Source: an uncultured Myxococcales bacterium
Lineage (GTDB): Bacteria > Myxococcota > Kuafuiibacteriia > Kuafuiibacteriales > Kuafuiibacteriaceae
Direction of reading: 5' to 3'
DNA length: 64,000 nucleotides
NCBI GenBank assembly: GCA_964463485.1
Contig: CAYXDO010000015.1
Location: 34,259-98,258 of the forward strand
Shown here: positions 2,721 through 59,617 of the stretch, piece by piece
How the letters are laid out: each line of letters begins with the position of its first letter
How positions within the stretch are numbered: position 1 is the stretch's first letter
Notes under the pieces: model-generated
Databases searched by the model: none
Told to the model about the DNA's origin: nothing
The model's input: only the letters and a program-made list of their open reading frames with translations
Translations under genes and position numbers: made by a program

Positions 2721-2771
2721 CGAAGTCAGCGAGTCTTCGAACGAGTTGCTGCGAACCAGGGTGCGACAAGC

Positions 2772-3899: not shown

Positions 3900-3915
3900 T
3901 TTCGACTCTTCTCTG

Positions 3916-4767: not shown

Positions 4768-4832
4768 GTCACCTACTCTCGAACGGTCCTACTCGAGGAG
4801 CCGTGGACGTCCAGTCCTAACAGAAGTCGCTG

Positions 4833-7492: not shown

Positions 7493-7495
7493 ATC

Positions 7496-8206: not shown

Positions 8207-8214
8207 TTCCGGAG

Positions 8215-10405: not shown

Positions 10406-11456
10406 GCGGATCGCGGCTCAGACGTCTGGCGACCGCGTCAGCCATCGCCCGCTCCACGTTCACCGGACCCCCGATTTCGATCCAGCGGTCGAATTCTCGC
10501 CGATAATGAAAGCGAGCCTTCAGCGCCGTCGTGAGCCCGAAATGCACACCTTGATACTCCAACAACAATGGACGTTCTGGGCTTGGCCGACGATCGACGA
10601 TGATGTCGAGCGACGCGAAGGGCAGGTCGAGCTCCTTGGCGGCCTCGAAAGCGAAGTCGAGGATCGTTGCGGGGACCGGCAAGAACTCGAGCCTGCCGCC
10701 CCCGCTCGCCCGAAAGTCGCGCCGACGATTGCGGCGGTAGAGGCCGCACGCGACGTCGTCCCACAGAAGTACTTTCCAATCCCCTTCGCTGACGATGAGC
10801 TCCTGAGCGACGAGTCGCCCAACGGTATGCCGGCGCAGCGCTCGGTCGAGCGCCCGCCTGACGAGACCGCGACCGGGAAACGATGCCGGATCGGTGAGGA
10901 TTCGTCGCGCGGCCCGTCGCGCCTCGCTGGGCGTGCGCGCGAGGCTCACGCCGGAGGCCCCCCACCCAGTCGCGGTCTTCAACACGATGGGAAAGTCCGC
11001 ATCAGCCAAATAGCGATCGAGGTGACCGGAAAAGCCGAAGACTCGAGTCCGCGGGACGGGAATCTTGGAGCGCCCGAGACGGACGGCCTGGTAGACCTTG
11101 TCTTCGTGGGCGAGCATGTGCTCGAACGAAGGCAAGAGGACGACGCCTTGTCTCTCCAGGGCTGAGAGTATCGACCTGATGAAAGCCGAGTACTCTGGAC
11201 GCTGGCTCGTCGCGTACACGGCGGCGGAGGGCCGAGCTGTGGCAAGCTCGAACAACCGCGGATCATGGAGCCCTACCGAAACCGCTTCGAGCCCGTGCCC
11301 GTTCAAGCTCCCCTCGAGCTCCCGCAAGTCTAGCCCCTCGTTCGCGCCGATGCGTTGTGGCACCTGGCCTTTGAAGTCCGTGAGGATCAAGACCCGAGAG
11401 ATGGGTACGGATAGGCGAGGAGAGTCCACCGCCCGACGAATAACTCGACGCTTCAC
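10368..11456 (-). CDS. ATP-grasp domain protein (RimK/D-Ala-D-Ala-ligase-like). Start uncertain, probably GTG near 11456.
   Basis: FPIVLKTATGWGASGVSLARTPSEARRAARRIL is the ATP-grasp glycine-rich ATP-binding region, followed by WKVLLWDDV...YRRN. The full ORF to 11660 would overlap the divergent GT2 start at 11475, so a shorter N-terminus is likely. Confidence 0.55.
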   Translation of the reverse strand: MKRRVIRRAVDSPRLSVPISRVLILTDFKGQVPQRIGANEGLDLRELEGSLNGHGLEAVSVGLHDPRLFELATARPSAAVYATSQRPEYSAFIRSILSALERQGVVLLPSFEHMLAHEDKVYQAVRLGRSKIPVPRTRVFGFSGHLDRYLADADFPIVLKTATGWGASGVSLARTPSEARRAARRILTDPASFPGRGLVRRALDRALRRHTVGRLVAQELIVSEGDWKVLLWDDVACGLYRRNRRRDFRASGGGRLEFLPVPATILDFAFEAAKELDLPFASLDIIVDRRPSPERPLLLEYQGVHFGLTTALKARFHYRREFDRWIEIGGPVNVERAMADAVARRLSRDPLRTSSAGPARAS

Positions 11457-11474
11457 CGATGAGAAGGGGGCCGC

Positions 11475-12407
11475 GTGAATCCGACGCTCTCGATTGTCGT
11501 TCCCGCGCGAAACGTCGCCCGGTGGATCGACGAAGCCGTTCGAAGCGCGCTCGGCTCGAGGCTCGCCTGCGAAGTGCTCGTGGTGGACGATGGCTCGAGT
11601 GATGATACTTGCTGCAGAGTCGAGCAGATTCGCGATTCGCGGGTGAGGGTCGTTCGGCAACGTCCGTTGGGACTCTCATCGGCTCGAAATCGAGGGATCA
11701 CCGAGGCCACCGGGCAATTCATTAGCTTCTTGGACGGCGATGACTGCGTGCTCGCGGCAGAGCTCGATCGAGCGGTGAGTCGCCTGGCGCGTACGGAAGC
11801 CTGGGTGATTTATGGAGAGACCATGATCATGGACTCTCTTGGCAGGGTCTTCGGAGCACGTCCGCCTCCCCTGTTTGCGCCCCGACCGGAGGGTGACGTG
11901 CTCCGGGCGCTCCTCGCTCGCAATTTCATCGCCAGCACGGGAGCCACCGCCATCCGGAGGATCGCGTTCGAGTCGGTGGGTCGGTATGCGCCCGAGCTCG
12001 TCCGGGCGCAGGACTGGGAGATGTGGTGCCGACTCGCAGCCAAGGGTAGGTTCCTTTACGCGGGTCCTCGGCCCATACTCCTCAGGAGAGTCAGAGTCGG
12101 AAGCGTGAGTGCGACGATCGGACTCTCCGCTGCCGAGATGCTTCGTACGATCGAGGTCGTGTTTTCGAATGCGGACGTGGTGGGCGCGATTCCGCGCGAG
12201 CGACTTCGCACGCTGGAGCGCATGCAGATAGCGTTTGCCCACGTAGTCGCGGGAACGGAGTGCTTGAGGGCGCGGCGGTTCGATGAAGCCCGCCGCGCCC
12301 TCGCCCGCGCCCTCGCGATGGATCCGACGCGCCCAGAGGCCGGCGTGCTGCTTCTCGCGGCGCTCGCGCGCCGACTGCCCTCCTCGCTGGAACGCAGACT
12401 CAAGTAG
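11475..12407 (+). CDS. Glycosyltransferase family 2 with C-terminal TPR-like helical tail
   Basis: MNPTLSIVVPARNVARWIDEAVRSAL...VLVVDDGSSDDT...FLDGDD are GT2 motifs. C-terminal Ala/Arg-rich helical region. Confidence 0.75.
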   Translation: MNPTLSIVVPARNVARWIDEAVRSALGSRLACEVLVVDDGSSDDTCCRVEQIRDSRVRVVRQRPLGLSSARNRGITEATGQFISFLDGDDCVLAAELDRAVSRLARTEAWVIYGETMIMDSLGRVFGARPPPLFAPRPEGDVLRALLARNFIASTGATAIRRIAFESVGRYAPELVRAQDWEMWCRLAAKGRFLYAGPRPILLRRVRVGSVSATIGLSAAEMLRTIEVVFSNADVVGAIPRERLRTLERMQIAFAHVVAGTECLRARRFDEARRALARALAMDPTRPEAGVLLLAALARRLPSSLERRLK

Positions 12408-12464
12408 TCGCAGCGGCTTCTCCTTGCACCGCAGCTGCCTCTCGGGTGATCGTCCTCGCTGCTG

Positions 12465-13457
12465 GTGCTCATCTCCATCGTCATACCGATGCTTGACGAA
12501 GCGGGGAGCCTGCCGAGCCTCCACGCGGAGCTCGTCAAAGTCATCGAATCGAGTGGTCTCGAGGCGGAGGTCATCTTCGTCGACGACGGAAGCACGGACG
12601 CGACGTGGCGAGAGCTCGAAGCCATGACCCGACAGGATTCCAGAGTCGTGGCCCTTCGCCTGCGGCGCCGATTCGGCAAGGCCGCTGCGCTCTCGGCGGG
12701 CTTTGCGTTGTCGCGAGGCGAGCTCATCGTGACCTTGGATGGAGATGGCCAAGACGACCCGATGGAGGTTCCTCGGTGCTTGCGCGCGATCGATGAGGGC
12801 CTCGACGTCGTGGTCGGGTGGAAGCGCGATCGAAGGGACCCATTTACCAGGGTCCTCGCCAGCCGAATATTCAACCTCACGGAGAGCCTGCTCAGCGGGT
12901 TGCGGCTTCACGATCATAACTCGGGGCTGAAGGCGATGCGTCGCGCAGTGGTGTCGGAGGTGCGGTTGCACGGGGAGCTCCATCGCTTCATTCCCGCGCT
13001 CGCTCATGCTCGCGGCTTCCGGGTGGGAGAGATTCCGGTGAATCACCGGCCGCGTAAGTTTGGAAAATCCAAGTACGGCTTGTCGCGGTACGTCTGGGGA
13101 CTCCTCGATCTATTGATGGTCCGCCTGCTCGTGGGTTATCGCAGCCGGCCCCAACACGTGTTGGGTCTCTTGGGCTTCGGCTCCTTCTTCGCTGGCGGGA
13201 CCGGGCTGAGTTACCTCGCGGCCACGTGGATCGCCCGTTTTTATCGAGCGGACGAATACCTTCCGCTCGCGTCACGGCCACTGACTTTGTATTCGGTGGC
13301 CGCCCTCGTCTTCGGCGCCCAGATGCTGTCCTTGGGATTTCTCGCGGGACTCCTGCCCGTCTACAGCTCCCGAGATGAGGATCATTACAGCATCAAGGGA
13401 GTCATCGACTCCCGCCGGCCCCTCGACGTGTCCGCGCAGGAGAAGAGAGGAACGTGA
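12465..13457 (+). CDS. Polyprenyl-phosphate glycosyltransferase (GT2, DPM1/ArnC/GtrB-like) with C-terminal TM helices
   Basis: MLISIVIPMLDEAGSL...VIFVDDGSTDATW...VTLDGDGQDDP is the DPM1/ArnC signature. Two C-terminal hydrophobic helices typical of bactoprenol-P sugar synthases. Confidence 0.8.
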   Translation: MLISIVIPMLDEAGSLPSLHAELVKVIESSGLEAEVIFVDDGSTDATWRELEAMTRQDSRVVALRLRRRFGKAAALSAGFALSRGELIVTLDGDGQDDPMEVPRCLRAIDEGLDVVVGWKRDRRDPFTRVLASRIFNLTESLLSGLRLHDHNSGLKAMRRAVVSEVRLHGELHRFIPALAHARGFRVGEIPVNHRPRKFGKSKYGLSRYVWGLLDLLMVRLLVGYRSRPQHVLGLLGFGSFFAGGTGLSYLAATWIARFYRADEYLPLASRPLTLYSVAALVFGAQMLSLGFLAGLLPVYSSRDEDHYSIKGVIDSRRPLDVSAQEKRGT

Positions 13458-21741: not shown

Positions 21742-23067
21742 TCAGGGCACTTCCGGCGGCAGTCCGGCGGAGATTTGGAGAGCCGCTCGCGCGGACGCGA
21801 GGTCGCTTTGCGCTTGGATCTGCTGCACTTCTGCGCCGAACAAGTCGCGCTCAGCTTGTATGAGATCGAGCTGCGTGGCGGCTCCGAGTTGATACCTCTT
21901 GGACGCGACCTCGCGGGCCCGCGCTACGGCTTCTACCTGCGCCTTCACGGCTTGAACCTTGGTCAGGGCGGCGTGGAGGGCCTGCCAGTCCGCGTTGATT
22001 TGGTCTCGGGCCGCCATTCGAGTCCGCTCGACCACGAGTGCCAGGATCGCCAGATTCGATCCTTGCACGTCGATACCCATGAGCGCGGGTCCGTCCAACC
22101 TCCACTGGAGATTCGCGCCCAGCGTGAACGAAGCCGAGTGGCTCGAGAACCCAGCCGAGTTGCTCACTCGCTCGGTGAATTGGGCTCCCACGATGGGTAG
22201 GAGCGCGAGCTTTGCGGCGGTCGCCAGCTTCTCTCCGCCTTCACGATCGGCCTCTGCGGCGCGCACCGCGGGCAGCGCGTCGACGTGCATTTCCAAGTCC
22301 TCGAGCCTCCCCGCGGGACTCAGATCGAGCTTGGGAAGCCTCGCCGCGGGCCCAGGGTCGTGCCCCGTGAGCGACGTCAGACTACGCCTCGAAACCGCGA
22401 CGAGTCGCTGCGCATCCGCCACACTTTGCCGATTGCGCTCTACCTCGGCCCGAGCCCGCAACAGCTCGAGCTCGGTCACCGCGCCGGCTCGTTCGCGGAT
22501 CTCCTGGAACTCGAGCTGCGCCTCGGCCGCGACGACCGAGCGCTGGGCCGAGGCCTCGAGCGCCAAAGCTGCGGCGTACCCATACCAGCCGGTCGTCACC
22601 GCACGCCGAACCTGATCCATGGTGAGCTGCTCTCGCGCCGCGAGAGCCTCCCGCGAAGCCTCCGCCGCCCCTGCCCGCATCCACCTTTGAGTATCGATCA
22701 GCGGCACGTCCACCCGCGCGGCCAGGTCGAGCTGATCGAGCGCGACCAGCGTGACCGCGTCGGGACTCAATTTCCCGGGCGGAATCTCCGACTCATACTG
22801 ATTGTGCGTCCAGCCGGCTTGAACCGACAGGCTCGGCACGAGCGCAGACCACGCCTGCTTCACCTCCAGATCACTCTTTCGGTGCTGCTCGACGGTGATT
22901 CGGCGGTCGAGGTTGCGCTCGCTCGCGGCCGTAAGCAACTGAGCCAGAGTGACCGACGGCGCCGACGAGCGACTTTCGATCGCCGTGCTCGTCGTCAGGG
23001 TCGGTCGCAAGACCTCGCCCGCCTCGGGCCCGACTTGGGTCGCGAGCGCGATGACGAGCGAGATCAT
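21742..23067 (-). CDS. Outer membrane efflux protein (TolC/OprM family, OMF)
   Basis: 441 aa with a signal-like N-terminus. Two-repeat coiled-coil/beta-barrel composition. C-terminal QAERDLFGAEVQQIQAQSDLASARAALQ is typical of OMFs. Last gene of the tetR-MFP-RND-OMF operon. Confidence 0.8.
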   Translation of the reverse strand: MISLVIALATQVGPEAGEVLRPTLTTSTAIESRSSAPSVTLAQLLTAASERNLDRRITVEQHRKSDLEVKQAWSALVPSLSVQAGWTHNQYESEIPPGKLSPDAVTLVALDQLDLAARVDVPLIDTQRWMRAGAAEASREALAAREQLTMDQVRRAVTTGWYGYAAALALEASAQRSVVAAEAQLEFQEIRERAGAVTELELLRARAEVERNRQSVADAQRLVAVSRRSLTSLTGHDPGPAARLPKLDLSPAGRLEDLEMHVDALPAVRAAEADREGGEKLATAAKLALLPIVGAQFTERVSNSAGFSSHSASFTLGANLQWRLDGPALMGIDVQGSNLAILALVVERTRMAARDQINADWQALHAALTKVQAVKAQVEAVARAREVASKRYQLGAATQLDLIQAERDLFGAEVQQIQAQSDLASARAALQISAGLPPEVP

Positions 23068-26000
23068 TTAGCCTCCGCTGCTGGGACTGACGCTTGGCGC
23101 GACTCACCCTTCATGGCGCGGATCGCTCTCCAGAGCCACTCGGACGCGTCGTCGAAGAACGAGTATGCGACGGGAACCGCCAAGAGCGTCAGCACCAACG
23201 ACATGATTTGACCTCCAACCACAACACCCGCGGTCGCGCGATTGAATCCCGAGCCGATGCCTCGCGCCGTAACGAGCGGAATCATCCCGGCCACGAAGGC
23301 GAAGGTCGTCATCAAGATCGGACGGAGGCGATCGCGATTTCCGCGAAGGATTGCTTCGTGTCGGAACCTCCAGCGAATCGACCTCTGCTCGCTCCGGTCA
23401 TTCGTCGACTGCAGCGCGGCCTCGAGCTGCGAGTTGCTCTTCTCTCGGAGCTTGTTCGTGTGATCGATCTGCAGAATCGCGTTCTTCTTGACCACGCCGA
23501 ACAGAACGAAAATGCCGAGGAAGCTGTACAGGTCGAGAGCCTGCCTGAAAACGATGACGGAGAGGATTGCGAAGGGGAGAGTCAGCGGGAGCGAAATGAG
23601 GATGGTGATTGGATGGAGCCACGAATCGAACTGGGCGGCCAAGATCAAATACATGAAGACCATCGAGGCCAAGAGCCCGAGGATGAAGGATAGGCCCGTC
23701 TCCTTCATCAGCTTGGTTTGACCCTGAGGTTTGATCGCAAATCCCTTTGGAAGGTTCTCGGCCTGAACGGCGGCGATGACGCCTTCGCCGATCGCGCCTT
23801 CATCCGCTCCGGGTTTGCCGTTCAGCATGAAGGTCACCTGGCGTTCGCGGTTGTAGCGATTGATACTCGAAGGCCCGGAACCCGGCGTGATGCGGACGAC
23901 GTCCGAGAGAGCCACGAGGCCTAGCTTCTTGGAGTTGACGGTCAGGAGCCTCAGTTTATCCTCCTGGCTCCTGTACTCATCGGAGGCTCGGAGTCTGATT
24001 TCGTACTGCTCCCCGTTGTCGGCGAACGTGGAGACTTTTTGGCCCGCAACGAGCATCTGGAGCGCCGAGGCGACGTCGACGACCTGAACGCCGAGGTCGG
24101 CGGCGCGTTCTCGATCGACGTTCACCTGAAGCTCCGGTTTGCCGTTGACCATGGTGGAGTCGACGTCGGCGGCTCCTGGGATTTGACGGATCTTCTCGAG
24201 GATGTTTTGGTTGGCGGCGGCCAGCCGTTCGAGGTCCGGGCCAGCCAGCAGGACTTGCACGCGCTGAGTTGGTTGCCCGCCGCCGAACTCGTTCACGTCC
24301 GCGATGTTAACGCGCCAATCCCTCGGTAGAGCGGGAAGTACTTTCTGGCGCACGACGTCTTTGAATTCGTTCTGGGTGATCTCGCGCTGATCTGGAGGCA
24401 CCATCTTGACGTAGATTCGAGCCTGATTGGGCGTCTTTCCTGGATCGTCCCCCACGGTCATCAGGGTCGCGGTCACCTCGGGATACTCACGGAGGATTCG
24501 AGCCACACGCTCACCCACCAGCTCGGTCGCGGCCACACTTCGACCCTCAGGCAGCCGGACGATCACTTCGAACTGGGCTCGGTCGTCGATGGGCAAGAAT
24601 CCTTTGCGCGCCGACTTCGCGAGCGGACCCATCGCGCCCAGGGCTGCGAGTGATGCAAGTACGATCACCCAACGGTGAGTCATCGAAAACTCGAGCGCGA
24701 CCATGTAGGCCCGCTCGAGCGGTCGATAGAACACATCGACGACACGCTCGAGGATCGGTCTAGCTTCGCCTCGTCGATGAGGCCGAAGGAACTGCGAAGC
24801 CAGCATGGGCGTGAGCGAGAAGCTCACGAAGAGAGAGACCGCGATCGAGAAGCTCATCGTGATTCCGAAGCTCGCGAGGAACCGACCCGGGATTCCGGCG
24901 ACGAACGCGATGGGTAAGAACACCGCGATCAGGGAGAGTGTCGTGGCCAAGACTGCCGGACCAATCTCCTTGGTGCCCACGACCGCGGCGGTCTTGGCGT
25001 CCATACCTTTTTCCTCGACCTGCTTGAAGATGTTCTCGAGCACCACGATGGCGTCGTCGATGACGATCCCCACGGCGAGCGCGAGCGCGAGCAGCGTGAT
25101 GGAATTCAGCGTATAGCCCACCAGCTTCATGACGGCGAACGTCCCGATGATCGAAGTTGGGATGGCGACGGCGGCGATGAACGTGCTCCGGAAGTTGCCG
25201 AGGAACATCAACACGACGATCGCGGCGAGGATCGCGCCCAGGATGAGGTGCTCGGTCACCGCTTCGGTTCCCGTGCGGACGACCGCCGAGCCATCGCGCT
25301 GAACGACGAGAGAGTATCCGTTCGGGAGCTCGCCCTGAATCTCCGTCATGCGAGCCCTGACCGCATCCACGACGGCCACGGTGTTGGTTCCCGACTGCTT
25401 CCGAAGCGCGAGCAGGACCGTTCGCTGACCGTTCCACCTAGCGGAGGTGGCGACGTCCTCGACGCCGTCTACGACCTCGGCCACTTCGTCCAATCGAATG
25501 GCTCGGCCGTTGACTTCCTTCACGATCACGCCTCGAAGTCCGTCGACGGACTCGACGCGACCGGCGACTCTCAGGGTCAAGTAGTCACGACTCGCGTCCA
25601 ACCGCCCGCCGGGCAAAGTCACGTTCTGGGCATTGACCGCAGCTCCGACCTCGCCAGCCGAGAGCCCGAGAGATCGCATTTTCAAGGGGTCGACCAAGAC
25701 CTGAATTTGCCGCTTTCGCCCGCCGATGAGTACGACCTGCCCAACGCCGCTGACGGACTCGAGACGCCTGCGCACGAGCCGGTCCGCGATGTCGGTCACT
25801 TCGCGTACGTCAGTCTCCCTTCCGTCTTTGGGCGGCGCGCTGAGCGCGATGTAGAGGACCGGCTGCGCGTCGGGGTCGAGCTTCTGCACGATCGGTGGGT
25901 CGATCCCCTTCGGCAACTCGGCCAAGACGGCGTTCACCTTCTGCTGGACCTCTTGGGCCGCGGTGTCGATGTTCTTCTCGAGGAGGAACTGAATGACGAC

Positions 26001-26273
26001 CTGAGACAGTCCCTCGGACGAGCTGCTACGGAGCTCGTCGATGCCCGAGATCGTATTCACAGACCCTTCGATCTTTTCCGTGATCTCCCGCTCGACGTCC
26101 TCCGGCGAGCTGCCAGGCAAGGCCGTAAGAATCACGACCGCGGGAAAATCGATCTTCGGAAACTGATCGACCCCGAGCTTGGTATAGAAGACACTTCCAA
26201 CGACCAAAATCACCAACGAAAGCACCGACGCCAGCACAGGGCGGCGCACGCAGAGCTCGGCTAGCCACAACAT
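23064..26273 (-). CDS. RND-family efflux transporter, inner-membrane permease (AcrB/CzcA-like)
   Basis: 1069 aa. N-terminus MLWLAELCVRRPVLASVLSLVILVVGSVFYTKLGVDQFPKIDFPAVVILT is the canonical AcrB start. 12-TM topology with two large periplasmic loops. Overlaps both neighbours by 4 nt. Confidence 0.9.
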   Translation of the reverse strand: MLWLAELCVRRPVLASVLSLVILVVGSVFYTKLGVDQFPKIDFPAVVILTALPGSSPEDVEREITEKIEGSVNTISGIDELRSSSSEGLSQVVIQFLLEKNIDTAAQEVQQKVNAVLAELPKGIDPPIVQKLDPDAQPVLYIALSAPPKDGRETDVREVTDIADRLVRRRLESVSGVGQVVLIGGRKRQIQVLVDPLKMRSLGLSAGEVGAAVNAQNVTLPGGRLDASRDYLTLRVAGRVESVDGLRGVIVKEVNGRAIRLDEVAEVVDGVEDVATSARWNGQRTVLLALRKQSGTNTVAVVDAVRARMTEIQGELPNGYSLVVQRDGSAVVRTGTEAVTEHLILGAILAAIVVLMFLGNFRSTFIAAVAIPTSIIGTFAVMKLVGYTLNSITLLALALAVGIVIDDAIVVLENIFKQVEEKGMDAKTAAVVGTKEIGPAVLATTLSLIAVFLPIAFVAGIPGRFLASFGITMSFSIAVSLFVSFSLTPMLASQFLRPHRRGEARPILERVVDVFYRPLERAYMVALEFSMTHRWVIVLASLAALGAMGPLAKSARKGFLPIDDRAQFEVIVRLPEGRSVAATELVGERVARILREYPEVTATLMTVGDDPGKTPNQARIYVKMVPPDQREITQNEFKDVVRQKVLPALPRDWRVNIADVNEFGGGQPTQRVQVLLAGPDLERLAAANQNILEKIRQIPGAADVDSTMVNGKPELQVNVDRERAADLGVQVVDVASALQMLVAGQKVSTFADNGEQYEIRLRASDEYRSQEDKLRLLTVNSKKLGLVALSDVVRITPGSGPSSINRYNRERQVTFMLNGKPGADEGAIGEGVIAAVQAENLPKGFAIKPQGQTKLMKETGLSFILGLLASMVFMYLILAAQFDSWLHPITILISLPLTLPFAILSVIVFRQALDLYSFLGIFVLFGVVKKNAILQIDHTNKLREKSNSQLEAALQSTNDRSEQRSIRWRFRHEAILRGNRDRLRPILMTTFAFVAGMIPLVTARGIGSGFNRATAGVVVGGQIMSLVLTLLAVPVAYSFFDDASEWLWRAIRAMKGESRQASVPAAEAK

Positions 26274-48803: not shown

Positions 48804-51341
48804 TCACGGGCGGGCCCTGGCGACGGCCACGCGGCGGCCAGACATTCCGAAAGCGAGCTCTTGGTCACCGATCAGGGCCACAGCGCCAGCGAATTCAGCA
48901 TCGAGCCGCGTCCATCGGTCGAGGGCGAAAGGCCTTTCGATGAAAGTGCGGCGACCGAGCGACAAGGTCTGCGCAAAGACGGTCAAGTGCCCCAGCGGGT
49001 CAATCAGCACCGACGGAGTTCCCGTCATGAGTAGCCTGGGAGAGTCTCGCGCCGGCACATCGTACCCGGGCAACGCTCGGATTCGAAGCCCGTCGGCGCG
49101 GTCTGCGAGTCGGCGCGGTCGAGCCTCGACCAGGTTGACTCGATCGAGGATGCTGGAGCGAACCGCGAAGAGGACACCGCCCTGCTCGAGGTCTTGAATC
49201 GATTCGATGGGTCGACTCTGCCCGAGAGTGGAGTCTGCGACGACCTCGGCGGGGAGGGCAACACGCTGGACTCTGCCAGCCGCGTATCGGGCCAGCACTC
49301 CGGAGCAGCCCCCGAGCCAGGCGACACCCCCTCCCGCGGATGCGACGTGACGCCACGACCCCGGGATGGGTGCGAACGGATCCGGAAACTCGGCGGTTCG
49401 CGCGCAATCGTTCGTGCCCGGCGAGGTTTCGAGTTCGGGAGTGCTCGGATCGTCCCACGCGACCTCGACCTCGGCGGCGACGTCTCCTCGGAGCTCGTAG
49501 ACTTTCCAGCCCGCACCCACGAGGAGCCCCACTCCGTGGGCGACCTCTGCGACGTCGTCGTAGGTGATTTCGGGTAGGTCATATTTGGTCCAATGAGGCG
49601 GGTTGATTGAAACGTCGAGCCGTCCAGCGAAGCCGCCCTCGGGTGTCGTCGCTGCGATCCAGAACGTCCCATCCGCGCGCGATCGAGCGGCGCCGACGAC
49701 AAAAGCGCGAGGATCGACCGGCAGCGAGATCGGCGAGCCCAGAGCGCGGCCTTCGAGCTTCGTGACCTCCGGGGGGCTTGGCCAGAACACCCAAGCCGCG
49801 TCGCCGTCGGGTACGATCGCGGCGGCAGGGAGGGTGTGCTCGCGGCCGTAGGTAGGTTCGGGAGGGCTGCCCGAATGAGACCGCAGCCACTCGCCATCGC
49901 GGGCTCTCGCGAGCAAAGTCCCGACGGGAATCGAGTCTGGCCGAAAGAGATCAGCTGGCAGGCCCAACTCGGCAAGTAAACCGGCGCGAGCGTGGTCGTC
50001 GGCATCCAGCACGAGCGCTCGACCGTCGGCCATACTCACCCAGGTCTCGGTCTCCGTTCGATGAACGATTCCGGAGATGGCGACCGAGGAGGTCAGGATT
50101 GTCTCCCAAGGACTCGTCCCTCGGACCTGGGATCGATGAAGTCGGTAACGCCCCTCTTCGACGGTGTAGACTAGGCCTTTGCTACCGACGCGACCCAGGT
50201 GGACCCGCGACCCGAGGCGACTGACATCCCGAGTCGCCAGCTGAGGAGACAAGTCGAGCGCGAAGACGGCGCCCTGCCCGCCGAGGAGCAGCGTGGACTC
50301 GTCGAGGGCGACCACAGATTCCGCCTTGTCTGGGGCTCTCGACAGGCTGCCGCGGACGGTGCAAGTCGACAGATTGTCGCACTCATAGACGATCAATCGG
50401 TGGGGCGAGTTGATGTCTTGGTGTATGATGAGTACGGACCCAGAGGGAGCTCGACACAAAGTGTATTTCTCGATCCCCGAAAACCGTGGAATCGAGTGTT
50501 TCAGCTCGACACCTCGACTCGACATCGAGAAGACGCGCGCGAGGTCCGCTTGGTCGGTGTCGAGGCTGAGCACGAGGACGGAAGCGTCACCGAGGGCCTC
50601 CGCATCGATGATCGGCCCGGGGAAAGTCACCGGGTGCGTCGTTCGCTCCCCGGCTGAACCGATCCACAGCGCGACTCGCTCGCTGACGAACGCGGATGCG
50701 CCGCTCGGCGTCATCGCGGCGATCTCGACGGGCTCTGCGTCCAAAGGGGGATGGATGAACTCGATATCCAGCGGAGGGCTCGTCGCGGCGACTTCCGGCC
50801 AGGCCGAGCAGGTGCCCGGGCGCGTCACGACGACCGACCGTTCGAGCGCGAGCGCGGAGGGATCTGAGGAATCGAGCCTATGAGTCGGGTCGAACACGGC
50901 GGCGAACGGGGGGATCGGGCACGCGTCGCCTTCGAGCAAGAGCTGAGGAGGTTGCGTCGCGGGCACGGCGCAGAACGGACAGCTCCCAATCAGAGGGGCA
51001 TCGGTGGACTTTCGCACATCGAGCGCTCCGACTTCGGTGACACTCAGCGGCGCGCTGGTGGGGCCCACGAGGTCCGCGGCAGCGACGACCACGAGGAGCT
51101 TCCCGTAGGTTTCGTCGACCTCGACGCGACCCAGTCCGTCGCGAATGGGTACGACTTTGTCCACCTGCCCGCTGGCGTCCATGGAAACGAAAACGACCAG
51201 ATCGCCGGGCAGCGCGTCGACGGGAAACGTGAGCGCGTCGGGAGCGCAAGCGATCAGGCCGCAAGCGATCAGGCAGCAAGCGATCAGGGCGAGGCGCAGC
51301 GTCGCGCTCCCTGAAGAGGGACTCACCTTCTCAGCATGCAC
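48804..51341 (-). CDS. Large secreted (lipo)protein of about 845 aa, of unknown function. The signal peptide contains three tandem LIAC lipobox-like motifs.
   Basis: N-terminus ...SATLRLALIACCLIACGLIACAPDA. Long beta-rich body with no motif I recognise. Start placed at a GTG about 51341; ORF-track start 51419. Confidence 0.55.
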   Translation of the reverse strand: MHAEKVSPSSGSATLRLALIACCLIACGLIACAPDALTFPVDALPGDLVVFVSMDASGQVDKVVPIRDGLGRVEVDETYGKLLVVVAAADLVGPTSAPLSVTEVGALDVRKSTDAPLIGSCPFCAVPATQPPQLLLEGDACPIPPFAAVFDPTHRLDSSDPSALALERSVVVTRPGTCSAWPEVAATSPPLDIEFIHPPLDAEPVEIAAMTPSGASAFVSERVALWIGSAGERTTHPVTFPGPIIDAEALGDASVLVLSLDTDQADLARVFSMSSRGVELKHSIPRFSGIEKYTLCRAPSGSVLIIHQDINSPHRLIVYECDNLSTCTVRGSLSRAPDKAESVVALDESTLLLGGQGAVFALDLSPQLATRDVSRLGSRVHLGRVGSKGLVYTVEEGRYRLHRSQVRGTSPWETILTSSVAISGIVHRTETETWVSMADGRALVLDADDHARAGLLAELGLPADLFRPDSIPVGTLLARARDGEWLRSHSGSPPEPTYGREHTLPAAAIVPDGDAAWVFWPSPPEVTKLEGRALGSPISLPVDPRAFVVGAARSRADGTFWIAATTPEGGFAGRLDVSINPPHWTKYDLPEITYDDVAEVAHGVGLLVGAGWKVYELRGDVAAEVEVAWDDPSTPELETSPGTNDCARTAEFPDPFAPIPGSWRHVASAGGGVAWLGGCSGVLARYAAGRVQRVALPAEVVADSTLGQSRPIESIQDLEQGGVLFAVRSSILDRVNLVEARPRRLADRADGLRIRALPGYDVPARDSPRLLMTGTPSVLIDPLGHLTVFAQTLSLGRRTFIERPFALDRWTRLDAEFAGAVALIGDQELAFGMSGRRVAVARARP
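51246..51290. repeat. 15-bp x3 tandem repeat gcaagcgatcaggNc inside the signal-peptide coding region of the 48804..51341 gene
   Basis: Read directly: gcaagcgatcaggcc gcaagcgatcaggca gcaagcgatcagggc. On the minus strand it encodes LIAC-C, LIAC-G, LIAC-A. Confidence 0.85.
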
Positions 51342-51673: not shown

Positions 51674-52615
51674 TCACCAGCGGAACTGGTTGGGATCGAA
51701 CTCTCGCTCGTCGAGGAGGCGATAGCCTTCGGGATCTTGGATTTCCGCCGGGATCGACTCACCCGATCCGAGCCCCGCGGGCTCGCTGACGTCGACGACC
51801 ACGCGCGCTTGAGTTGCGGAGGGATCGGCGCTCGGCGTGCTCTCAGGGGCGTCCCACGACTTGACGAGCTGCGCGGTGAGCCAGCGATCAGCCGGGATGC
51901 CGAGTACGACGTGGAGCCGCGAAGTCTCCGAAAGCTCGACGACCAAGTCGACCGAGTCGGAGCCTCGGAGCTCGAAGGGGACCGAAGCCTGAGCTCGGAG
52001 CGCATCACGATCGCACGCGATTCGATACCACCAATCCGGTCGCGCGGGCTCGCCATCCGGGCCCGGTTCACGAACGTCCTTGGCCGGCTCACCATCCGGG
52101 CCCGGTTCGCACGGATCCTTCGCGGGCTCTCCGTCTGGGCCTGGCTCGAGGGGTGACTCCCGATGAGTGACCCCTTTTTCGTCGGTGACCGTGGGGCCGC
52201 TGACTCGGCCGCGGATCACGACGGAGGCTCCGTCCAAAGCCTCGGTTGGGCCGACTCTGCCGAACACGGCCAACCCACCTTGAACGTAGGCCTCGGGGAA
52301 CGGAAAGAGGGCCTCGCCTTCTCGAGAGCTCAGGAGGTGCGGTCCTTCGACGAGGGGGTGCCCGCCCGTGGGAATGGCTGGGTTATCGCCGAGCAAGCGC
52401 AAGACGTCGACGTTCACGGAGATCTCTTCGACGGTGACCCGGCCAGAGAGCTCGCTCGAGAGTCCACCGAGGTCGAGCGCGGCGACCAGCCCAACCCGCG
52501 CTTCACGCGGCTCGGGCAGCGAGAGCGAAGCGTCGGTGCGCTGGCCACACGCGGAGAGGGCGAGCATGGAGCTCGCGGTGAGTGTTACCCATTTTGGAGT
52601 TCTTCGGCCTTTCAT
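51674..52615 (-). CDS. Lipoprotein with three acidic Pro/Gly-rich 13-aa repeats ([13 protein letters not shown])
   Basis: Signal with lipobox [30 protein letters not shown] lies 9 nt upstream of the ATG at 52615. Start overlaps the stop of the upstream regulator gene (ATGA). Confidence 0.55.
52044..52160. repeat. 39-bp x3 imperfect tandem repeat encoding [13 protein letters not shown] / [13 protein letters not shown] / [13 protein letters not shown]
   Basis: Recurrent catccgggcccggttc(a/g)c cores read in the sequence, matching the 13-aa protein repeats. Confidence 0.7.
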
Positions 52616-55600
52616 CGCGCCGCCTCCTGGCACAACTTCTTGAGTGCCTCGTTTGCATTGATGATTTGGGACAACCTCGGCCGCTTCATGCCCAGCTTTT
52701 CGGCGGCTCGCGTGATGTTCCCTTGGCTCTCCGCGAGCGCCCGCGCGATCGCTTCTACCTGAATCCTCTTCTTCAGCTCGGACAGCGAGACGTCACCCGC
52801 GAGAATTCGCGAGAGCAGCGCGTCCTCGGGATTCTTGGCCGGTCGCTCCTCGGGCCTCGCGCGAATCACCTCGGGCCGCTCGGCGGTCACGAGGGGCTCG
52901 GTCGGATCGGGAGGAGGGGCCGCCGAGCGAGTGAGGGGTGGCGAATCAGCGAACAGCTCCTCGTACTCTGCGAAGTCGTCCGGACCGATCACCGAGCCAT
53001 CGGCGAGCAGAGCCACCGAGCGAATGACGTTCTCGAGCTCGCGGACGTTTCCGGGCCAGGAATACCTGGTCAGCATGGCCTCTGCGCCTTTGGACATGGA
53101 CTTCTGCGGCGTGCCGGTCTCGAGCGCATGGCGGCCGAGGAAGTGCTGTGCCAGCTCGATGATGTCCTCGACTCGCTCGCGGAGCGGCGGGAGCTCCACG
53201 GTGATTCCTCGGAGCCGATAGTAGAGGTCCTCGCGAAAAGTGCCTTGGCGCACGAGCTCCACCAGGTTCTTGTTGGTCGCACAGAGTACCCGGGCCTCCA
53301 GCTTGATGGGTCGGCCTCCGCCAACCCGTTCGAACTCACGCTCCTGCAATACTCTCAGCAGCGAGACTTGAGTCTTGGGAGAAATATCGCCGATCTCGTC
53401 GAGGAAGATGGTGCCTCCGGCCGCCATCTCGAATCGACCGGCCTTCTTCTGGTGGGCGCCGGTGAACGACCCGCGTTCGTGCCCGAACAGCTCGGACAAC
53501 AACAGGGTCTCAACCAAGGCCGCGCAGTTCAACTTCACGAAGGGTCCCGACGCGCGCGGAGACGATCGATGCAACGCCTCAGCCGCGAGCTCCTTGCCGG
53601 TACCCGACTCTCCGAGGATCAAGACCGTGTTGTCGCTGTGCGCCACTCGGTCGAGAATGTGAAAGACCTTGAGCAGCTTCGGGGAACGGCCGATGAGTGC
53701 GACATATCGCTCGTCCCATTCGGAGCTCCTCGTCCGTGCACCGCGCGGCTGCGGAGCGACGAGGATCGGCTCGCCGCTCTGTCGGCGCGACTCTCCCTTG
53801 ATCCGTTTCGAACCGGGCTCGTCGAGCGCGCGCATCGCCTGCTCGAGCTCCACCTGCGTGCGGGAACCTGCAAACGCAGCGCGAAGGTCCGCCGGGAGCT
53901 CCGCGGAGAGCTCCCCTCGCAGCTTCTCGGCCTGAAGCAAGTGGGCCCTGGCCGTTTGAGTGTCTCCGCGAAGTAGGAGCGCTCGCCCGAGCGTCGCCTC
54001 GACCTCTGCGCGGAGCAGCCTGTCCTCGGTCTTGTGCTCCGAGGCCGCCGTTTGCGCCGCTTCGACCGCCCTCGGATCCTTCTCCGCGATACGGATCTTG
54101 GCGGCGAGCAGGCTCACCTTGGTCGCGATGCGAGCGGTCTTGATCTTGGCCTTGGATGCCTCGAGCTCCGCCAGAATCTGGGCCGCCACTTGCGGCTCTC
54201 CGGCCCGCAGCTCGACTTCGGCCAGGTCTGCCAGAGTTTCGACCGGACGCTCGGGCCCGAGCCTTCGCTGATGAATCATGGCTTCGCGGAGCCGCTTGGC
54301 GGCGAGCTCGTACTGACCTCGCTCCGCAGCGATGCTCCCATCGAGCGCCAAGGAGATCGCGCGGAGGCGCTCCACCCCGCCGGCCTCGGCGATCCTGAGC
54401 GCCTCGGCGTTGTAGGCCTCCGCGCGATCCAGCGATCCGACAGCGAAGGAGAGATTCGCGAGGTTGTAAAGCACGCGGGCGAGCTGAGTCTTGTTGCCGA
54501 GCCTGCGGAACAGGCCGAGCGCGGAGCGATAGTGTCCGAGCGCGACGCCCAGCCGGGACTGCTGGTGAGCCAATACACCGAGGTTCAAGTGGCCGAACGC
54601 CAAGTGCGACATTTCTCCGGCCGACTTGGCCCGCTGAATACCGGCCTCGAGGCTCGCTTCGGCGAGGGACTCGCGCCCCGCGCGCATGTGCGCCAGGCCG
54701 ATGTTGACCAGCGAACGCGCCTCCGCGCGCAACAGCCCGCTCGACTCGGACAACCTCAACGTCTCGTCGAACGACAAGAGCGCGGTGTCCACGTCGTCAG
54801 CCGCCAGCGCGATCTTGCCCAGCAAATTCACCAGCTCGATTCGCACACGCACGGACCCGCATGAGTCTATGCTCTCGAGACCTGCTCGGCCGCGCTCCCG
54901 CGCTTCGTCCAATTTTCCCTTATGGTACAAGGCTTCGGCGCAGGCCACTTCGAGCTCGGGGCGCTCGGCAGCATCATCCGCCAATGCCCGACGAGCTTCC
55001 TCGATCACCGCCAGCGCCCGGTCGTACTCGCCCGACTGATTGGCAAGCTCCGCTTCGAAGAGTACGGCCGGTCCCACGCTGGACTCAGGCAGCGCAGCCT
55101 TCCACTCTTCGGCCCGCCGGAGCGCATCTCGACGCTCCCCGCGGATCGCCGCCAGGCGCGCCAGTTGCTCGAGCACCAGGACACGAGACTCGCCCGAGGC
55201 CAGTGGCAAGACCTCTTCATACGTGCGCGCCGCCGCGGCATGAGCCCCCGCCACGGCGTGGGCCTCCGCGGCCTTGATCGCCAAGCTCATCCCACGCTCG
55301 GGCTGATCGGAGCGCAAGTAGTGATGCGCGATGATCGCGGCTCCGGCCGGACGACCGGGCTCCGAGGCCAACACTTCAGCCCACCGCCGATGAAGGCTCT
55401 GCGCGAGAGCTGTGGGCATCGCGGCGATCGTCGAATCGAGGTTCACGCGTCGAGCGAACGAGAACCGAAGCTCGCCGTTCTCGATCGAACGATCGAGGAT
55501 TCGAGAGTCTCGCAATCCAGAGAGAGATTTCACGACGTCCTTTTGCGGGCGTCCGGTGACTTCGGCGACGACTTTGGCGGAGGCGGGCGCGGAGGCGAGC

Positions 55601-56457
55601 GCGAGCGCGTAAAGGAGCTCCCGCGAGAGCGGGTCGAGCCCGGCGAGCCGGCGCGCATAGAGCTCCTCGACGTTCGACGGCAGAGTCTCGAGGAGCTCGT
55701 CGATCTCGCGGGGCAACCCATTGGACGCGGCGAGCAACCGCTCGAGCACGCGAGGTGAGTCGAGGTAACGTCGCAACCCATCCAAGTCGAGACGACCGAG
55801 GAACATCACGTCGTCCGCGCGACGCTCCCTTTGCTCCTCGAGAAAGTCTCGTACCGGCGCACTCGACTCCGACTCATCTGAGAAACTCAGTACGAGCAAC
55901 CCAGGACGGGCTGCCTCGAGCGGCTCGCCCCGAAATCCCTCCGCCAAGTCCGCAGCGAGCTCGAGCGTATCAGCGCCCGCTCGCTCGAGCTCGTGTACGA
56001 TGACGAGCAGCCGCGTTCGCTCCGCGACTCCAAGCAACAGGCGTCGCACCGAGTCGAAAAACAGGAGTTTTCGTTCGAGCGACGGAGTCCCCGCGGCACT
56101 CTCCTCGGCCCCAAGCACCGGTTCGAGCCCAGAGAGCAGCGGGTCGATGAGCGCCCGCTCTCCCATGCTCTCCGCCCAAACGATCGCGGCTCTCGCAATT
56201 TCCGCGAAGGGCGCGAAGCTCGGGCCCGCTGCGTGGGGCGTACGCCCCTCGAGCACCAGGACGTGCCCGGCTTTTGCGCCCTTGACGAGACCGAAGAGCA
56301 AGCGACTCTTCCCTGCCCCGCTCGGTCCGTGCAGCACGACGGCGCTCCCGCGATCGGCGAGCAACCGCTCCTGCAACCGCACGAGCTCCGAGCCGCGAAC
56401 TTCCCACTTCGCGCTGCGCTCGGAGTCGGACGAAAACGATCGCGCAAGCTCGGTCAT
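52612..56457 (-). CDS. Sigma-54-dependent transcriptional activator (bEBP) with an N-terminal STAND-like P-loop NTPase and a long TPR array (about 1281 aa)
   Basis: N-terminal P-loop [14 protein letters not shown]. About 600 aa of TPR-like repeats. Central sigma-54 AAA+ domain: [23 protein letters not shown] (GAFTGA variant), [18 protein letters not shown]-terminal Fis-type [24 protein letters not shown]. Start placed at ATG 56457 (MTELARSF); ORF-track start 56820. Confidence 0.8.
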
Positions 56458-56667
56458 TGCTCCCACTCTAGGGGCTCGACCACGCGGGAGGCCAGTCGCC
56501 AGTTGGGGGATGGGACCGCGACGTACCCGAACAAACCCGCCGGCAAAGTGGCGAGGTTCATCGGCGAGCGTAGCGCGCACCGAACGATCTGTAGCTTCCA
56601 AGGCACGAAAGACGTAGCCACCGCAGAACGACCAGCGCAGCCGGCCCCTTTCGAACGCGTACGAACG

Positions 56668-56686
56668 GGTGGCACGGGGGCTGCAT
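56668..56686 (+). promoter_or_regulatory. Candidate sigma-54 (-24/-12) promoter TGGCACG-GGGG-CTGCA, facing the 56698 gene and divergent from the sigma-54 activator gene
   Basis: TGGCAC at about 56670-56675 and GC at about 56683-56684, with exact GG-N10-GC spacing. The predicted TSS falls at or just before the ATG at 56698. Confidence 0.5.
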
Positions 56687-56697
56687 TTTCGGCTTGC

Positions 56698-57957
56698 ATG
56701 GTTGCCGTCGCGATTCAGAATCCCTTCTCGCTCCCCGCCGCTCAGCTTTCCGTGGTTGGCGAACCGACTCATCTCGATGCGGCCGAGCTTGCTGGCGCCT
56801 TCGAGGAGCTCGGACTTCAAGGTGGGGCCTCGAAGTCCGCCATCCGGCAGTTCCAGGCCCGATTCAACGCGCTCAACCCGAGCACGCCGATCAAGGTCGA
56901 TGGGATCGTCGGTCCCGAGACGCTCGGAGCCCTTCGTCAGGTGTCGAACGGCGGCGCCGACTGGACCGCGCCCTCCGCATCGTTCAACCCACAGGCCGCC
57001 TATCGCTCTGCTTCACCGGAAATGAGCGCGGATGCGCCGCGCGTCGACGCGCGCTGGCTCAATACGTTCGGCGACGCCGCGGCTCGGGAGAGCCTTCTGA
57101 GAGCGACCAACCGACAGACGGACCCACAGTCGGACGCTGAAGGCGCTTCCGTGGCGTCCGTGGCTGGCAGCCTGTCGGGCCTCGCCGCAGGCGCAGCCGT
57201 CGCCGCGCGGGCAAAGTCTCCGGTCAAACTCACTTCGATCCAAGGCGGCGCCCTGGTCGACGACGTCGCGGGCTCGATGGCCAAGAAGGCCACGCTCACG
57301 AGCCGGCCCTACACCGCGAGCTTCAACGGCGCCGAGCTCCGCGTGAACCCAGGTGAGTCGGCGAAGGTCGCCGTCGAACGTTGGGCAGCGGCCCCCCGAA
57401 CCCTGACTCAGTTCCCCACCAACACCAGCATGCTCCGCGGAGTCATGGGCGGGGACACGCTCGAGTCGGTCGCCAAGCGCATGTCCGATGCCGCCGCGAA
57501 CAGCGGCAAGCTCATCGGTCATGAGTTCAACGGCGTCAAGCTGCTCGCGCGGCCGGGTGACTCACAGGCCCAAATCCTGAAGTCGTTCACCGCCGGTCAG
57601 GCCGCCAAGAAGGCCACGAGCCAGGCCGCGGCGGTCGCAGCCAAGGCCGGAATCGCCTCGAAGATCGCCCCTCGCCTCGGCGGCGCGGTCACCGCAGCCT
57701 TCGCCGTCGCGGACATCGCCTCCGGATTCCACGCCGACAAGGTTCGCAACGACGGCTCGTACACCGAGACGACCAAGGCGAGCGGACGAGCGGCGGGCGG
57801 CGTGGCTGGCGCGTTGGCCGGCGCGAAGGTCGGAGCGGCCGTCGGCACGATCTTCTTCCCCGGCGTTGGGACCGCGGTCGGCGCGGCCATCGGCGGCGTC
57901 GCCTTTGGCGTCGCCGGATCGATCTTCGGTGAGAAGATCGCCGACGCCACCAACTGA
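56698..57957 (+). CDS. Putative peptidoglycan-binding (PGB_1-like) protein with an Ala/Gly-rich region and a C-terminal glycine-zipper membrane segment
   Basis: [20 protein letters not shown]...[17 protein letters not shown] resembles the PG_binding_1 helix-repeat. C-terminal [33 protein letters not shown] is a GxxxG zipper. The first 235 codons of ORF 55993..57957 overlap the activator gene and were excluded. Confidence 0.5.
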
Positions 57958-58207
57958 GTCTGTCGGCCGTCGGCCGTCACACGCGGAGAGGGTCCGACGA
58001 CCGTCGTCGGGCTCGAATATCCGGGTTCGGGCGCGAGCATGACGAGCATGGGCGCGTGAGTATGAGTGGCCTTCGACCCACCGACGAAATCTCTTCCGAA
58101 GCAGCGGACAAGGTCTCCGGGGGACAACTCAGAATCGGTGCGTCGGACGATCCTTTGGAGCAAGAGGCCGACCGGGTGGCTCGCTCCGTCTTTTGACGCT
58201 CCCGCCT

Positions 58208-59617
58208 TCAGGCAGATCCGCGATCAGCGCCACTGATACTCAGCCTTCCGCCCGACTGAATACTCAGCGCGCCGGGCGAGCCACGGTGCTCGCACACCGA
58301 GAGCGCTCCTTCCATTCGCGCTGGCACGACCGCTGAGTCGATCGCCTTTTCGATTTCGCGCGCTAGCTCCTCGATCCCCTCGGCGTCTGGCCGCGGACTC
58401 CGACATGGGACGTTCCGACGCGGGCGAGGGACGAGCCAGGTCAGCGCACGTCGGAAGCTGCTGATGCCTCCGAACACGAACAGAGTGGGCAACATCCAGA
58501 ATCCGACGAGAAAGGGGACGCCGAGCGGAACCATGAACCAGGGACCACGATCCGTGAACATCGCCACGGCGAGGATTGCTGCCGAACCGGCCGAAAGCGT
58601 TGCCACCACGACCGCGAACCCCTGGAGCTTCCGAGCCAGCGCGGCGTGGATCGACCCGCGATGCCGCAGGGTCCAAAAGACGGAGAACGCGGCCACACAA
58701 GCGACCCTCGTGACGAAGAGACGCGCCACGTCGAACGGCACTTGCGCGTCGAGGATCACTCTCGGGCTACTCAGCCGCGAGTAGCACAGAGTCGCCGCCA
58801 CGAACATGAGCACGCCTGCGAAGACGGCTTCGATCGCGGTCGCTTGGGGCTCCGAGGAACACTCAGTCCCGCCGTTGGGCCAACGCACGAGTCTCCGATA
58901 CACGACCAGCGCGCCGGCACCGAACAGCAGTAAGATCGGCGTCGCGGCGCCCACCGACACCGCCAAGGCCAAGAGCTCGGAGGCGCTGAGTCTGAGGGTC
59001 GGGGTATAGAAGTCTCCGAAGGGAGCCGCTCGAACCGCGAGTATGAAGAACACTCCCACCGCGACGAGGAACTGCGTCCTCGCAAAGTCGGTCACTTTCC
59101 TTCCGAAGGCGTCGGTGGCCGGGTCGTGGCTTCGAATGGCCAGCGAGAGCGCCCGACGGGTGAGTCGCTTGAGAGCCCGTCGACTCTCCGCCATCGCCCG
59201 AGTCCCCCCATTTCCCAAGCGCGCCTCGCGATCGATTCTCCACTCCAAAGCGTCGAGAGCTCGAAGAATCTCTCGCACGGGCCGGAGCTCGAAGCCGACC
59301 AGCGTCCGCCGGATCCTGCTCAGGGCCACGCTCGCCGAGCGAGGAAACCGAAGCGCGGCGACGAAAATGAGTATGGAGACGACGAACAAGAACGTGAGAC
59401 CGACCACCAACGTGCCGCCCATCATGAATTCGACGAGGTCCGAGCGCTGCATGACGCGGTCCCATGGCCATGGGCCAAAGCAGAGCTCTGGAGCCGTCAG
59501 AAGAAATCCGAGCGCCAACACGGTCTCGAGGCGGGCCTCGATCGGATGAGACGCGATACCCCAAGTGCCTCGACGAAGTGCCATAGCCGATGGGTCTCCA
59601 AACGTCGTACCAAGCAC
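58208..59617 (-). CDS. Hypothetical polytopic membrane protein with at least 8 TM helices
   Basis: 469-aa ORF with many long hydrophobic segments. No recognisable catalytic motif. Confidence 0.45.
   Translation of the reverse strand: MLGTTFGDPSAMALRRGTWGIASHPIEARLETVLALGFLLTAPELCFGPWPWDRVMQRSDLVEFMMGGTLVVGLTFLFVVSILIFVAALRFPRSASVALSRIRRTLVGFELRPVREILRALDALEWRIDREARLGNGGTRAMAESRRALKRLTRRALSLAIRSHDPATDAFGRKVTDFARTQFLVAVGVFFILAVRAAPFGDFYTPTLRLSASELLALAVSVGAATPILLLFGAGALVVYRRLVRWPNGGTECSSEPQATAIEAVFAGVLMFVAATLCYSRLSSPRVILDAQVPFDVARLFVTRVACVAAFSVFWTLRHRGSIHAALARKLQGFAVVVATLSAGSAAILAVAMFTDRGPWFMVPLGVPFLVGFWMLPTLFVFGGISSFRRALTWLVPRPRRNVPCRSPRPDAEGIEELAREIEKAIDSAVVPARMEGALSVCEHRGSPGALSIQSGGRLSISGADRGSA

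Follow-up and report, generated by a model that had tools for sequence, protein, structure and literature searches.

The stretch of DNA analysed here (64 kb in total, hereafter the window) contains two divergent genes that share a 240-nucleotide (nt) intergenic region. The gene on the minus strand encodes a sigma-54 activator, or enhancer-binding protein (EBP), and the gene on the plus strand, here called the target gene, encodes a protein of 419 amino acids (aa). A sigma-54-type motif, TGGCACGGGGGCTGCA, was found on the plus strand of the intergenic region, 12 nt 5' of the target ATG. It is probably a real sigma-54 promoter, and its transcript is probably leaderless, with a predicted leader of 0-2 nt. 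The nearest relatives of the window proteins were labelled Myxococcota or Sandaracinaceae. The main features of the locus are as follows.

52612..56457, minus strand: divergent sigma-54 activator (EBP), 1281 aa, with AAA_16, MalT-like TPR, Sigma54_activat, AAA_lid_14 and HTH_8
56670..56685, plus strand: predicted sigma-54-type -24/-12 promoter TGGCACGGGGGCTGCA, with the -24 element TGGCACG at 56670-56676, the spacer GGGG and the -12 element CTGCA at 56681-56685
56696..56698, plus strand: predicted transcription start site (TSS), placed by the TSS rule of PMC4591121
56698..57957, plus strand: target gene, 419 aa, start ATG 56698, with a PG_binding_1-like domain, two repeats and a glycine zipper

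The GG doublet (56671-72) and the GC doublet (56683-84) of TGGCACGGGGGCTGCA were separated by 10 nt, and the -12 C was at 56684. The sequence-only reading had reported a near-consensus sigma-54 promoter that agreed with TGGCACG-N4-TTGCW at all key positions and faced the PG-binding/glycine-zipper gene. The position, the doublets, their spacing and the orientation were borne out, but one of the 12 specified positions deviated, with C for T at -15. The exact pattern TGGCACGNNNNYTGCW, which allows Y at -15, occurred once in the window against 0.02 expected (100 shuffles), and there were two matches against 0.84 expected when one mismatch was allowed. In a scan for the GG-N10-GC core together with eight further consensus positions, TGGCACGGGGGCTGCA was the only site in 64 kb with seven of the eight, and the sites with six were all intragenic. 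Furthermore, the motif was scored with a matrix built from 42 intergenic sense E. coli sites obtained by chromatin immunoprecipitation sequencing (ChIP-seq; Bonocora et al. 2015, PMC4591121), in which the four spacer columns were ignored. The score was 15.5 bits, compared with a leave-one-out median of 15.8 (range 6.8-19.7) for the E. coli sites themselves. This level had a background frequency of 2.3e-5 per position. It was the highest score on both strands of the window, and the runner-up (12.8 bits) was intragenic. A relatively AT-rich stretch from -11 to -1, ATTTTCGGCTT, followed on the 3' side. The promoter region was identical in two independent assemblies, NCBI GCA_016208175.1 and the Logan assembly of SRR12113402. 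No sigma-70-like promoter was found by a scan of 56300-58400, and rpoN was not present in the 64-kb window.

A near-copy of the motif, the 16-mer TGGCTCGGGGGCTGCT, was also present at 49304-49319 on the minus strand, with 14 of 16 positions as in the promoter, the GGGG spacer included. It was rejected as a meaningful copy and taken as chance, because it lies inside an 871-aa gene and its flanks are dissimilar.

The predicted start of transcription was obtained with the rule of Bonocora et al. (PMC4591121), in which the TSS lies 19 bp downstream of the motif centre, that is, 12 nt after the -12 C. The rule placed +1 at G56696, and the ATG at 56698-56700 began at +3, 14 nt past C56684. The other nearby purine was A56698, and the predicted 5' end was GCAUG or AUG. 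This was in agreement with the earlier claim that +1 lies within 0-2 nt of the ATG. No Shine-Dalgarno-like motif was found in the 30 nt 5' of ATG 56698; this says little, as such a motif is absent from about half of the neighbouring genes too. The 5' region of the predicted mRNA was not more structured than shuffles (z +1.1). In previous studies, 70S ribosomes were reported to start at an AUG lying at or close to the 5' end (PMC9031893). In rhizobia and numerous other bacteria, sigma-70-type promoters have been reported to give leaderless mRNAs, and one was also proposed for pexR in myxobacteria (PMC12754779). In addition, several sigma-54-dependent mRNAs of E. coli have unusually long leaders (PMC4591121). 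No paper describing a sigma-54-dependent leaderless mRNA was found by full-text literature searching, whose coverage was partial and gives no proof of novelty.

The in-frame start candidates of the target gene were TTG 56503, GTG 56548, ATG 56698, GTG 56752 (codon 19) and GTG 56941 (codon 82). ATG 56698 was picked by two gene callers. The sequence-only reading had offered either a leaderless mRNA or a start codon further downstream, and had found no in-frame ATG for about 115 codons. The distance was slightly off, as the next in-frame ATG is codon 109, and the GTG candidates it mentioned do exist. Residues 6-19 of the target (IQNPF and QL.V, in the form IQNPF...QLSV) aligned with the first 10-30 residues of the three homologues P0039, P0040 and P0041 in BLASTP and MAFFT comparisons. 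The motif IQNPF...QL.V is coded from between ATG 56698 and GTG 56752 and runs across GTG 56752. Moreover, in the closest relative (locus L007, from a sister genome), an in-frame TGA at 4971, 30 nt 5' of the called ATG, excluded a longer N-terminus. ATG 56698 is the best-supported start codon, because the N-terminal motif shared with the homologues precedes and spans GTG 56752. Of the two options offered before, the leaderless mRNA is favoured on these alignments over the downstream start. In the target protein itself, aa 40-79 matched PG_binding_1 below threshold; it also had two helix/beta-hairpin repeats, and a glycine zipper at the C-terminus. No signal peptide was found in its 419 aa, and its AlphaFold2 model, with a mean pLDDT of 48, was too poor for a fold search.

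The target family was very small. An exhaustive HMMER search for further full-length relatives gave only P0039, P0040 and P0041, that is, four members among 1.8 billion representative proteins. The genome contigs yielded no match when scanned with the target protein and only unrelated PG-binding-domain proteins when scanned with the family alignment, and a metagenome scan with the C-terminal alignment gave no match. A degenerate DNA pattern for TExxKAxGRAxGG found 98 loci, of which two were left after local tblastn; both were the P0040 contig or a 99.8% copy of it with an identical upstream region. A word-indexed protein search with the alignment returned P0001 and P0039 only. The comparison of promoters rests on four genes, because these wider searches added no new members. 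The sites upstream of the four genes were the following.

Window, 56670..56685, plus strand: TGGCACGGGGGCTGCA, 15.5 bits, 14 nt from the -12 C to the ATG
L009 (P0040), -12 C at 1377, ATG at 1391: TGGCATGCGGAGTGCT, 12.5 bits, the best of its locus, gap of 14 nt
L010 (P0041): TGGTCCAGATCCTGCT, 10.0 bits, 43-nt leader with the Shine-Dalgarno sequence AGGAGGA
L007 (P0039): TGGCACGCTTCCTGAG, 9.4 bits, GA at -12, 16-nt leader with the Shine-Dalgarno sequence GGAGGA

A sigma-54-like site was thus present within 150 nt upstream of all four family genes, with a Fisher combined p of 4.8e-6 (150-nt target, background score frequency from about 130 kb of related sequence). Since every member carries such a site, sigma-54 control looks like a trait of this small family as far as the sequences tell. 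The gap of 14 nt between the -12 C and the ATG was identical in the window and L009, whose proteins share about 35% identity, so leaderless spacing was seen in two of the four members. The leaderless layout is not a family rule, because the other two members have a weak site, a leader and a Shine-Dalgarno sequence. Apart from the target gene, the window showed no synteny with the sister-genome locus L007. As for the proteins, the family members shared a layout that opens with a QNP motif at the N-terminus and continues with a PG-binding-like helical domain, FNG..L..RPGD repeats (one to three, each of helix, beta-hairpin and helix) and a glycine-zipper tail, DG..TE..KA.GRAAGG. Hundreds of unrelated proteins were matched by this tail by itself.

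The activator encoded on the other strand had a STAND-type NTPase domain (AAA_16), Walker A/B, a GSFTGA loop and a FLDEIG motif, and it was the only EBP in the 64-kb window. Its start at 56457 lay 213-228 nt from the sigma-54 motif, within the 200-240 bp given by the sequence-only reading. Two further features belong to its surroundings.

51674..52615, minus strand: gene for a 313-aa protein with a lipoprotein-like N-terminus, whose ATG overlaps the EBP stop (ATGA)
56490..56515, minus strand: block conserved with the sister genome, CCCATCCCCCAACTGGCGACTGGCC, upstream of the EBP gene, in which only the -24-like half CTGGCGA is retained

The adjacency of the EBP and the target is suggestive, because divergent EBP-target pairs are common (e.g., pexR-ahpC). 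In myxobacteria, such pairs have been described in which the intergenic region is shorter than 300 bp and holds a sigma-54 promoter (PMC12754779). The orthologues of the EBP gave no support for its role as the cognate activator, which the earlier reading had implied. They were found in four loci, with 43-68% identity over the sensor part, and never beside a target homologue; upstream of them was def-fmt or a radical SAM gene. The conserved adjacency that marks a dedicated divergent cassette was not found among them. The closest target homologue was in the same sister metagenome-assembled genome as the closest EBP orthologue, on a different contig, where an FHA-type EBP and a Ser/Thr kinase lay 4 kb away from it. 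On this evidence, the chance that the neighbouring EBP activates TGGCACGGGGGCTGCA is put at slightly less than even.

Several observations were made on the EBP itself. It fuses a STAND NTPase and a MalT-like TPR sensor to a sigma-54 AAA+ domain and HTH_8, which gives it two ATPase modules; no paper describing an architecture of STAND NTPase, TPR, sigma-54 AAA+ and HTH was found. In every orthologue locus the EBP was translationally coupled, through an ATGA overlap, to a lipoprotein-like protein of 313-361 aa without a Pfam family. Strong sigma-54 sites were present before the start codons of the distant orthologues themselves, at L004 4952-4968 (+) and L005 4963-4979 (+), with scores of 15.9 and 17.6 bits and GA or GT at -12. 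They lay 22 and 11 nt upstream of the start codons, and the L005 site was identical in L006. This suggests positive autoregulation of the distant orthologues, judging from the motifs. The conserved block at 56490-56515 occupies the place of this strong promoter in the window.

The intergenic region was also inspected for binding sites of an activator; the sequence-only reading had suggested a search of 56500-56640 for inverted repeats as EBP sites. The following candidates were obtained.

56569-56587 and 56613-56631, plus strand: two 19-nt direct repeats CGTAGC-N7-GAACGA, candidate upstream activator sites (UASs) by position only
56646..56669, no strand assigned: 24-bp imperfect palindrome CCCTTTCGAACGCGTACGAACGGG, abutting the -24 element and centred near -39, a candidate regulator site

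None of these candidates was convincing by statistics. The palindrome paired at 10 of 12 positions, which was reached by 49 of 1000 dinucleotide shuffles (p about 0.05, borderline). The direct repeats sat at about -127 and -83; neither they nor the repeated GTAGC and CGAACG words were above dinucleotide shuffles. Motifs that the window has in common with L003 and L007 (CGAACGG and AGCTTCCA) were rejected, being at the chance level for 7-8-mers.

An antisense open reading frame (ORF) of 81 aa, or 35 aa from ATG 56561, also spans this region (56454-56699, minus strand), and its TGA overlaps the activator ATG (ATGA). The GC periodicity of 0.83/0.50/0.65 in 56458-56600 fits its frame. The ORF is probably due to chance, because it had no Pfam match and was not conserved in the sister genome.

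Taken together, these results are best explained by a functional sigma-54 promoter with leaderless translation of the 419-aa gene, an account that we hold to be somewhat more probable than its negation. RNA polymerase with sigma-54 would bind the -24/-12 elements of TGGCACGGGGGCTGCA as a closed complex, which would be opened by an enhancer-binding ATPase; the likeliest candidate is the divergent STAND-TPR-AAA+ activator 213 nt away. Transcription would begin at G56696 or A56698, and the mRNA would therefore have a leader of 0-2 nt, with no Shine-Dalgarno sequence. Translation would then begin at the 5'-proximal AUG 56698 via the leaderless (70S) route. Expression of the gene would be gated almost wholly at open-complex formation, with no 5' untranslated region (UTR) for post-transcriptional control.

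Several points weigh against this account. The motif has C at -15 and a GGGG spacer, and no candidate UAS in the intergenic region was significant. All 41 E. coli sigma-54 sites upstream of protein genes are at least 18 nt from the start codon by predicted TSS, none being closer, and many of the sites that sigma-54 binds in E. coli never act as productive promoters (PMC4591121). Genes without a Shine-Dalgarno sequence make up about half of those called in these genomes anyway. Among the homologues, two of the four sites were weak (9.4 and 10.0 bits) and were followed by a normal leader with a Shine-Dalgarno sequence, and in L009 an in-frame ATG (1367) lies within the -24 element. None of the four EBP orthologue loci adjoined a target homologue. 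Finally, GTG 56548 and TTG 56503 lie in frame upstream of ATG 56698, and longer proteins made from another promoter are formally possible.

In a rival reading, TGGCACGGGGGCTGCA would be a chance or non-productive sigma-54 site and the gene would be read from an unrecognised upstream sigma-70-family promoter, giving a leadered mRNA without a Shine-Dalgarno sequence. The many non-promoter sites bound by sigma-54 in E. coli (PMC4591121), the half of genes without a Shine-Dalgarno sequence, the want of a significant UAS, and the high-scoring chance matches inside genes, such as those in L065 and L102, are all consistent with it. However, only 0.02 exact matches are expected per window, the site is the single best in 64 kb and is intergenic, sigma-54-like sites precede all four family members (p about 5e-6), one distant homologue (L009) has the identical spacing, and the scan gave no sigma-70-like promoter. 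A chance or non-productive site is therefore considered improbable. The question of the activator is a separate one. The promoter may be real and leaderless and yet be activated by a different EBP, with the neighbouring STAND-type EBP controlling other genes, perhaps its own operon; this is compatible with the promoter reading given above. The adjacency was unique to the window genome, the sister-genome homologue was close to an FHA-type EBP and a Ser/Thr kinase, and the distant STAND-EBP orthologues carry strong sigma-54 sites before their own genes. Against this, the neighbouring EBP is the only one in the window, divergent pairs are the commonest arrangement for dedicated EBPs, and a distance of 213 nt is typical. 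A different activator is accordingly a serious possibility, rated below even.

The two remaining alternatives concern the start codon. If the promoter is real and translation begins at GTG 56752 or later, the leader of the mRNA would be about 56 nt, an ordinary length. This GTG is in frame, its context TTCCGTGGTTG is similar to the ATG context TTGCATGGTTG, and the GC content at third codon positions (GC3) was 0.65 in the first 34 codons against 0.83 in the rest of the gene. Codon 19, though, is preceded or spanned by the conserved IQNPF and QL.V, no Shine-Dalgarno sequence precedes GTG 56752, the GC content at second positions (GC2) over the first 34 codons, 0.47, agrees with coding in this frame, and both gene callers chose the ATG. 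This makes a downstream start quite unlikely. A start further upstream, at GTG 56548 or TTG 56503, would render the motif intragenic, as is the case for many sigma-54 sites of E. coli. No stop interrupts the frame as far back as 55993, and a third-position-like GC of 0.83 in 56458-56600 is in phase with it. However, GC at first positions (GC1) is lower than GC2 in 56458-56600, so the opposite strand fits better; the homologues have no such N-terminal extension, and the in-frame stop forbids one in L007. In addition, only 45-90 nt would be left of the divergent intergenic region. An upstream start is thus very improbable, and leaderless translation from ATG 56698 is retained as the preferred explanation.

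Compared with canonical sigma-54 promoters (E. coli glnAp2, pspA and norV; Klebsiella nifH), TGGCACGGGGGCTGCA has the same TGGCACG-N4-YTGCA form and GG-N10-GC core. It is likewise intergenic, gene-facing and close to an EBP gene, and it scored at the median of the E. coli ChIP-seq sites. It differed in its G-rich spacer and the C at -15, and in the predicted distance from TSS to start codon, which is 2 nt here and at least 18 nt, typically 25-90 nt with a Shine-Dalgarno sequence, in E. coli. The arrangement of a divergent EBP and a putative target with the promoter in an intergenic region of less than 300 bp was similar to that of pspF-pspA, norR-norVW and pexR-ahpC, the last from Myxococcus xanthus and so, like the Myxococcota-like window, from the same taxonomic neighbourhood. 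Cassettes of the pexR-ahpC type are kept from species to species and carry defined, repeated UASs, whereas here the adjacency was not conserved and no UAS was significant. The sensor module of the window EBP is a STAND NTPase with TPR, instead of a GAF, PAS or receiver domain. As in leaderless mRNAs (lambda cI, mycobacterial, Deinococcus and rhizobial), the AUG is at or within a few nucleotides of the predicted 5' end, there is no Shine-Dalgarno sequence, and the 5' region is no more structured than shuffles. However, it is sigma-70-family promoters that drive the leaderless genes described, and an extended -10 near the ATG is often present in them. Joining a sigma-54 promoter to leaderless initiation would bring together two known things in an unusual way; it would not be an element of a new kind.

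A sigma-54 promoter stays silent as long as no ATPase activator has opened it, and leaderless mRNAs bypass the normal step of ribosome binding. If this gene combines both, its expression would hang on one regulated event, and no 5' UTR would be left for further control. The phyla best known for leaderless genes (Actinobacteria and Deinococcus) are not known to have sigma-54. For this reason, and because the 41 E. coli sites all keep 18 nt or more from the start codon, the combination has received hardly any attention. Its use in practice is modest: improved annotation of start codons and promoters in high-GC Myxococcota genomes and, possibly, a tight minimal expression switch. The case also flags the activator architecture of STAND NTPase, TPR, sigma-54 AAA+ and HTH.

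A wider reading is that sigma-54 promoters of this Myxococcota-like lineage recurrently place the start codon at +3 to +6 and form an enhancer-dependent leaderless class. This is regarded as doubtful. Its examples are the window, L009 with the identical spacing, and two further intergenic sites in the sister-genome locus L007, at 4838 (-) with 16.2 bits and at 6685 (+) with 16.4 bits, where the called ATG is 3 and 5 nt after the predicted +1. The two L007 sites count only as hints, because a second gene caller chose other starts. If the wider reading were true, control would lie entirely at open-complex formation and translation would be independent of the Shine-Dalgarno interaction; here the gate would be an EBP of the STAND-NTPase/TPR type, previously uncharacterised. 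About 0.9 Mb of the compared loci was also surveyed for sigma-54 sites directly followed by an ATG; the additional hits, L065 and L102, were rejected and not counted, because they are inside genes.

The L007 region from 700 to 7320, which holds the closest target homologue, was a cluster of small hypothetical proteins, none with a signal peptide. Their polar N-termini look alike (MTIQIK.., MAIQLEINNPPG.., MRITQPANPRPF.. and MTLSVPNSIVQNPIF). The cluster contained three strong sigma-54 sites, at 707 (+), 4838 (-) and 6685 (+), with a Ser/Thr kinase and an FHA-type sigma-54 activator downstream. It may be a co-regulated, perhaps secreted, protein set. A search of the window with Rfam found no family. 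The rest of the window contained, at 192-13457, a polysaccharide or sialic-acid-like biosynthesis cluster with NeuB, CTP_transf_3 and several glycosyltransferases and, at 21742-26273, an RND efflux pump together with its outer membrane factor, both unrelated to the promoter finding.

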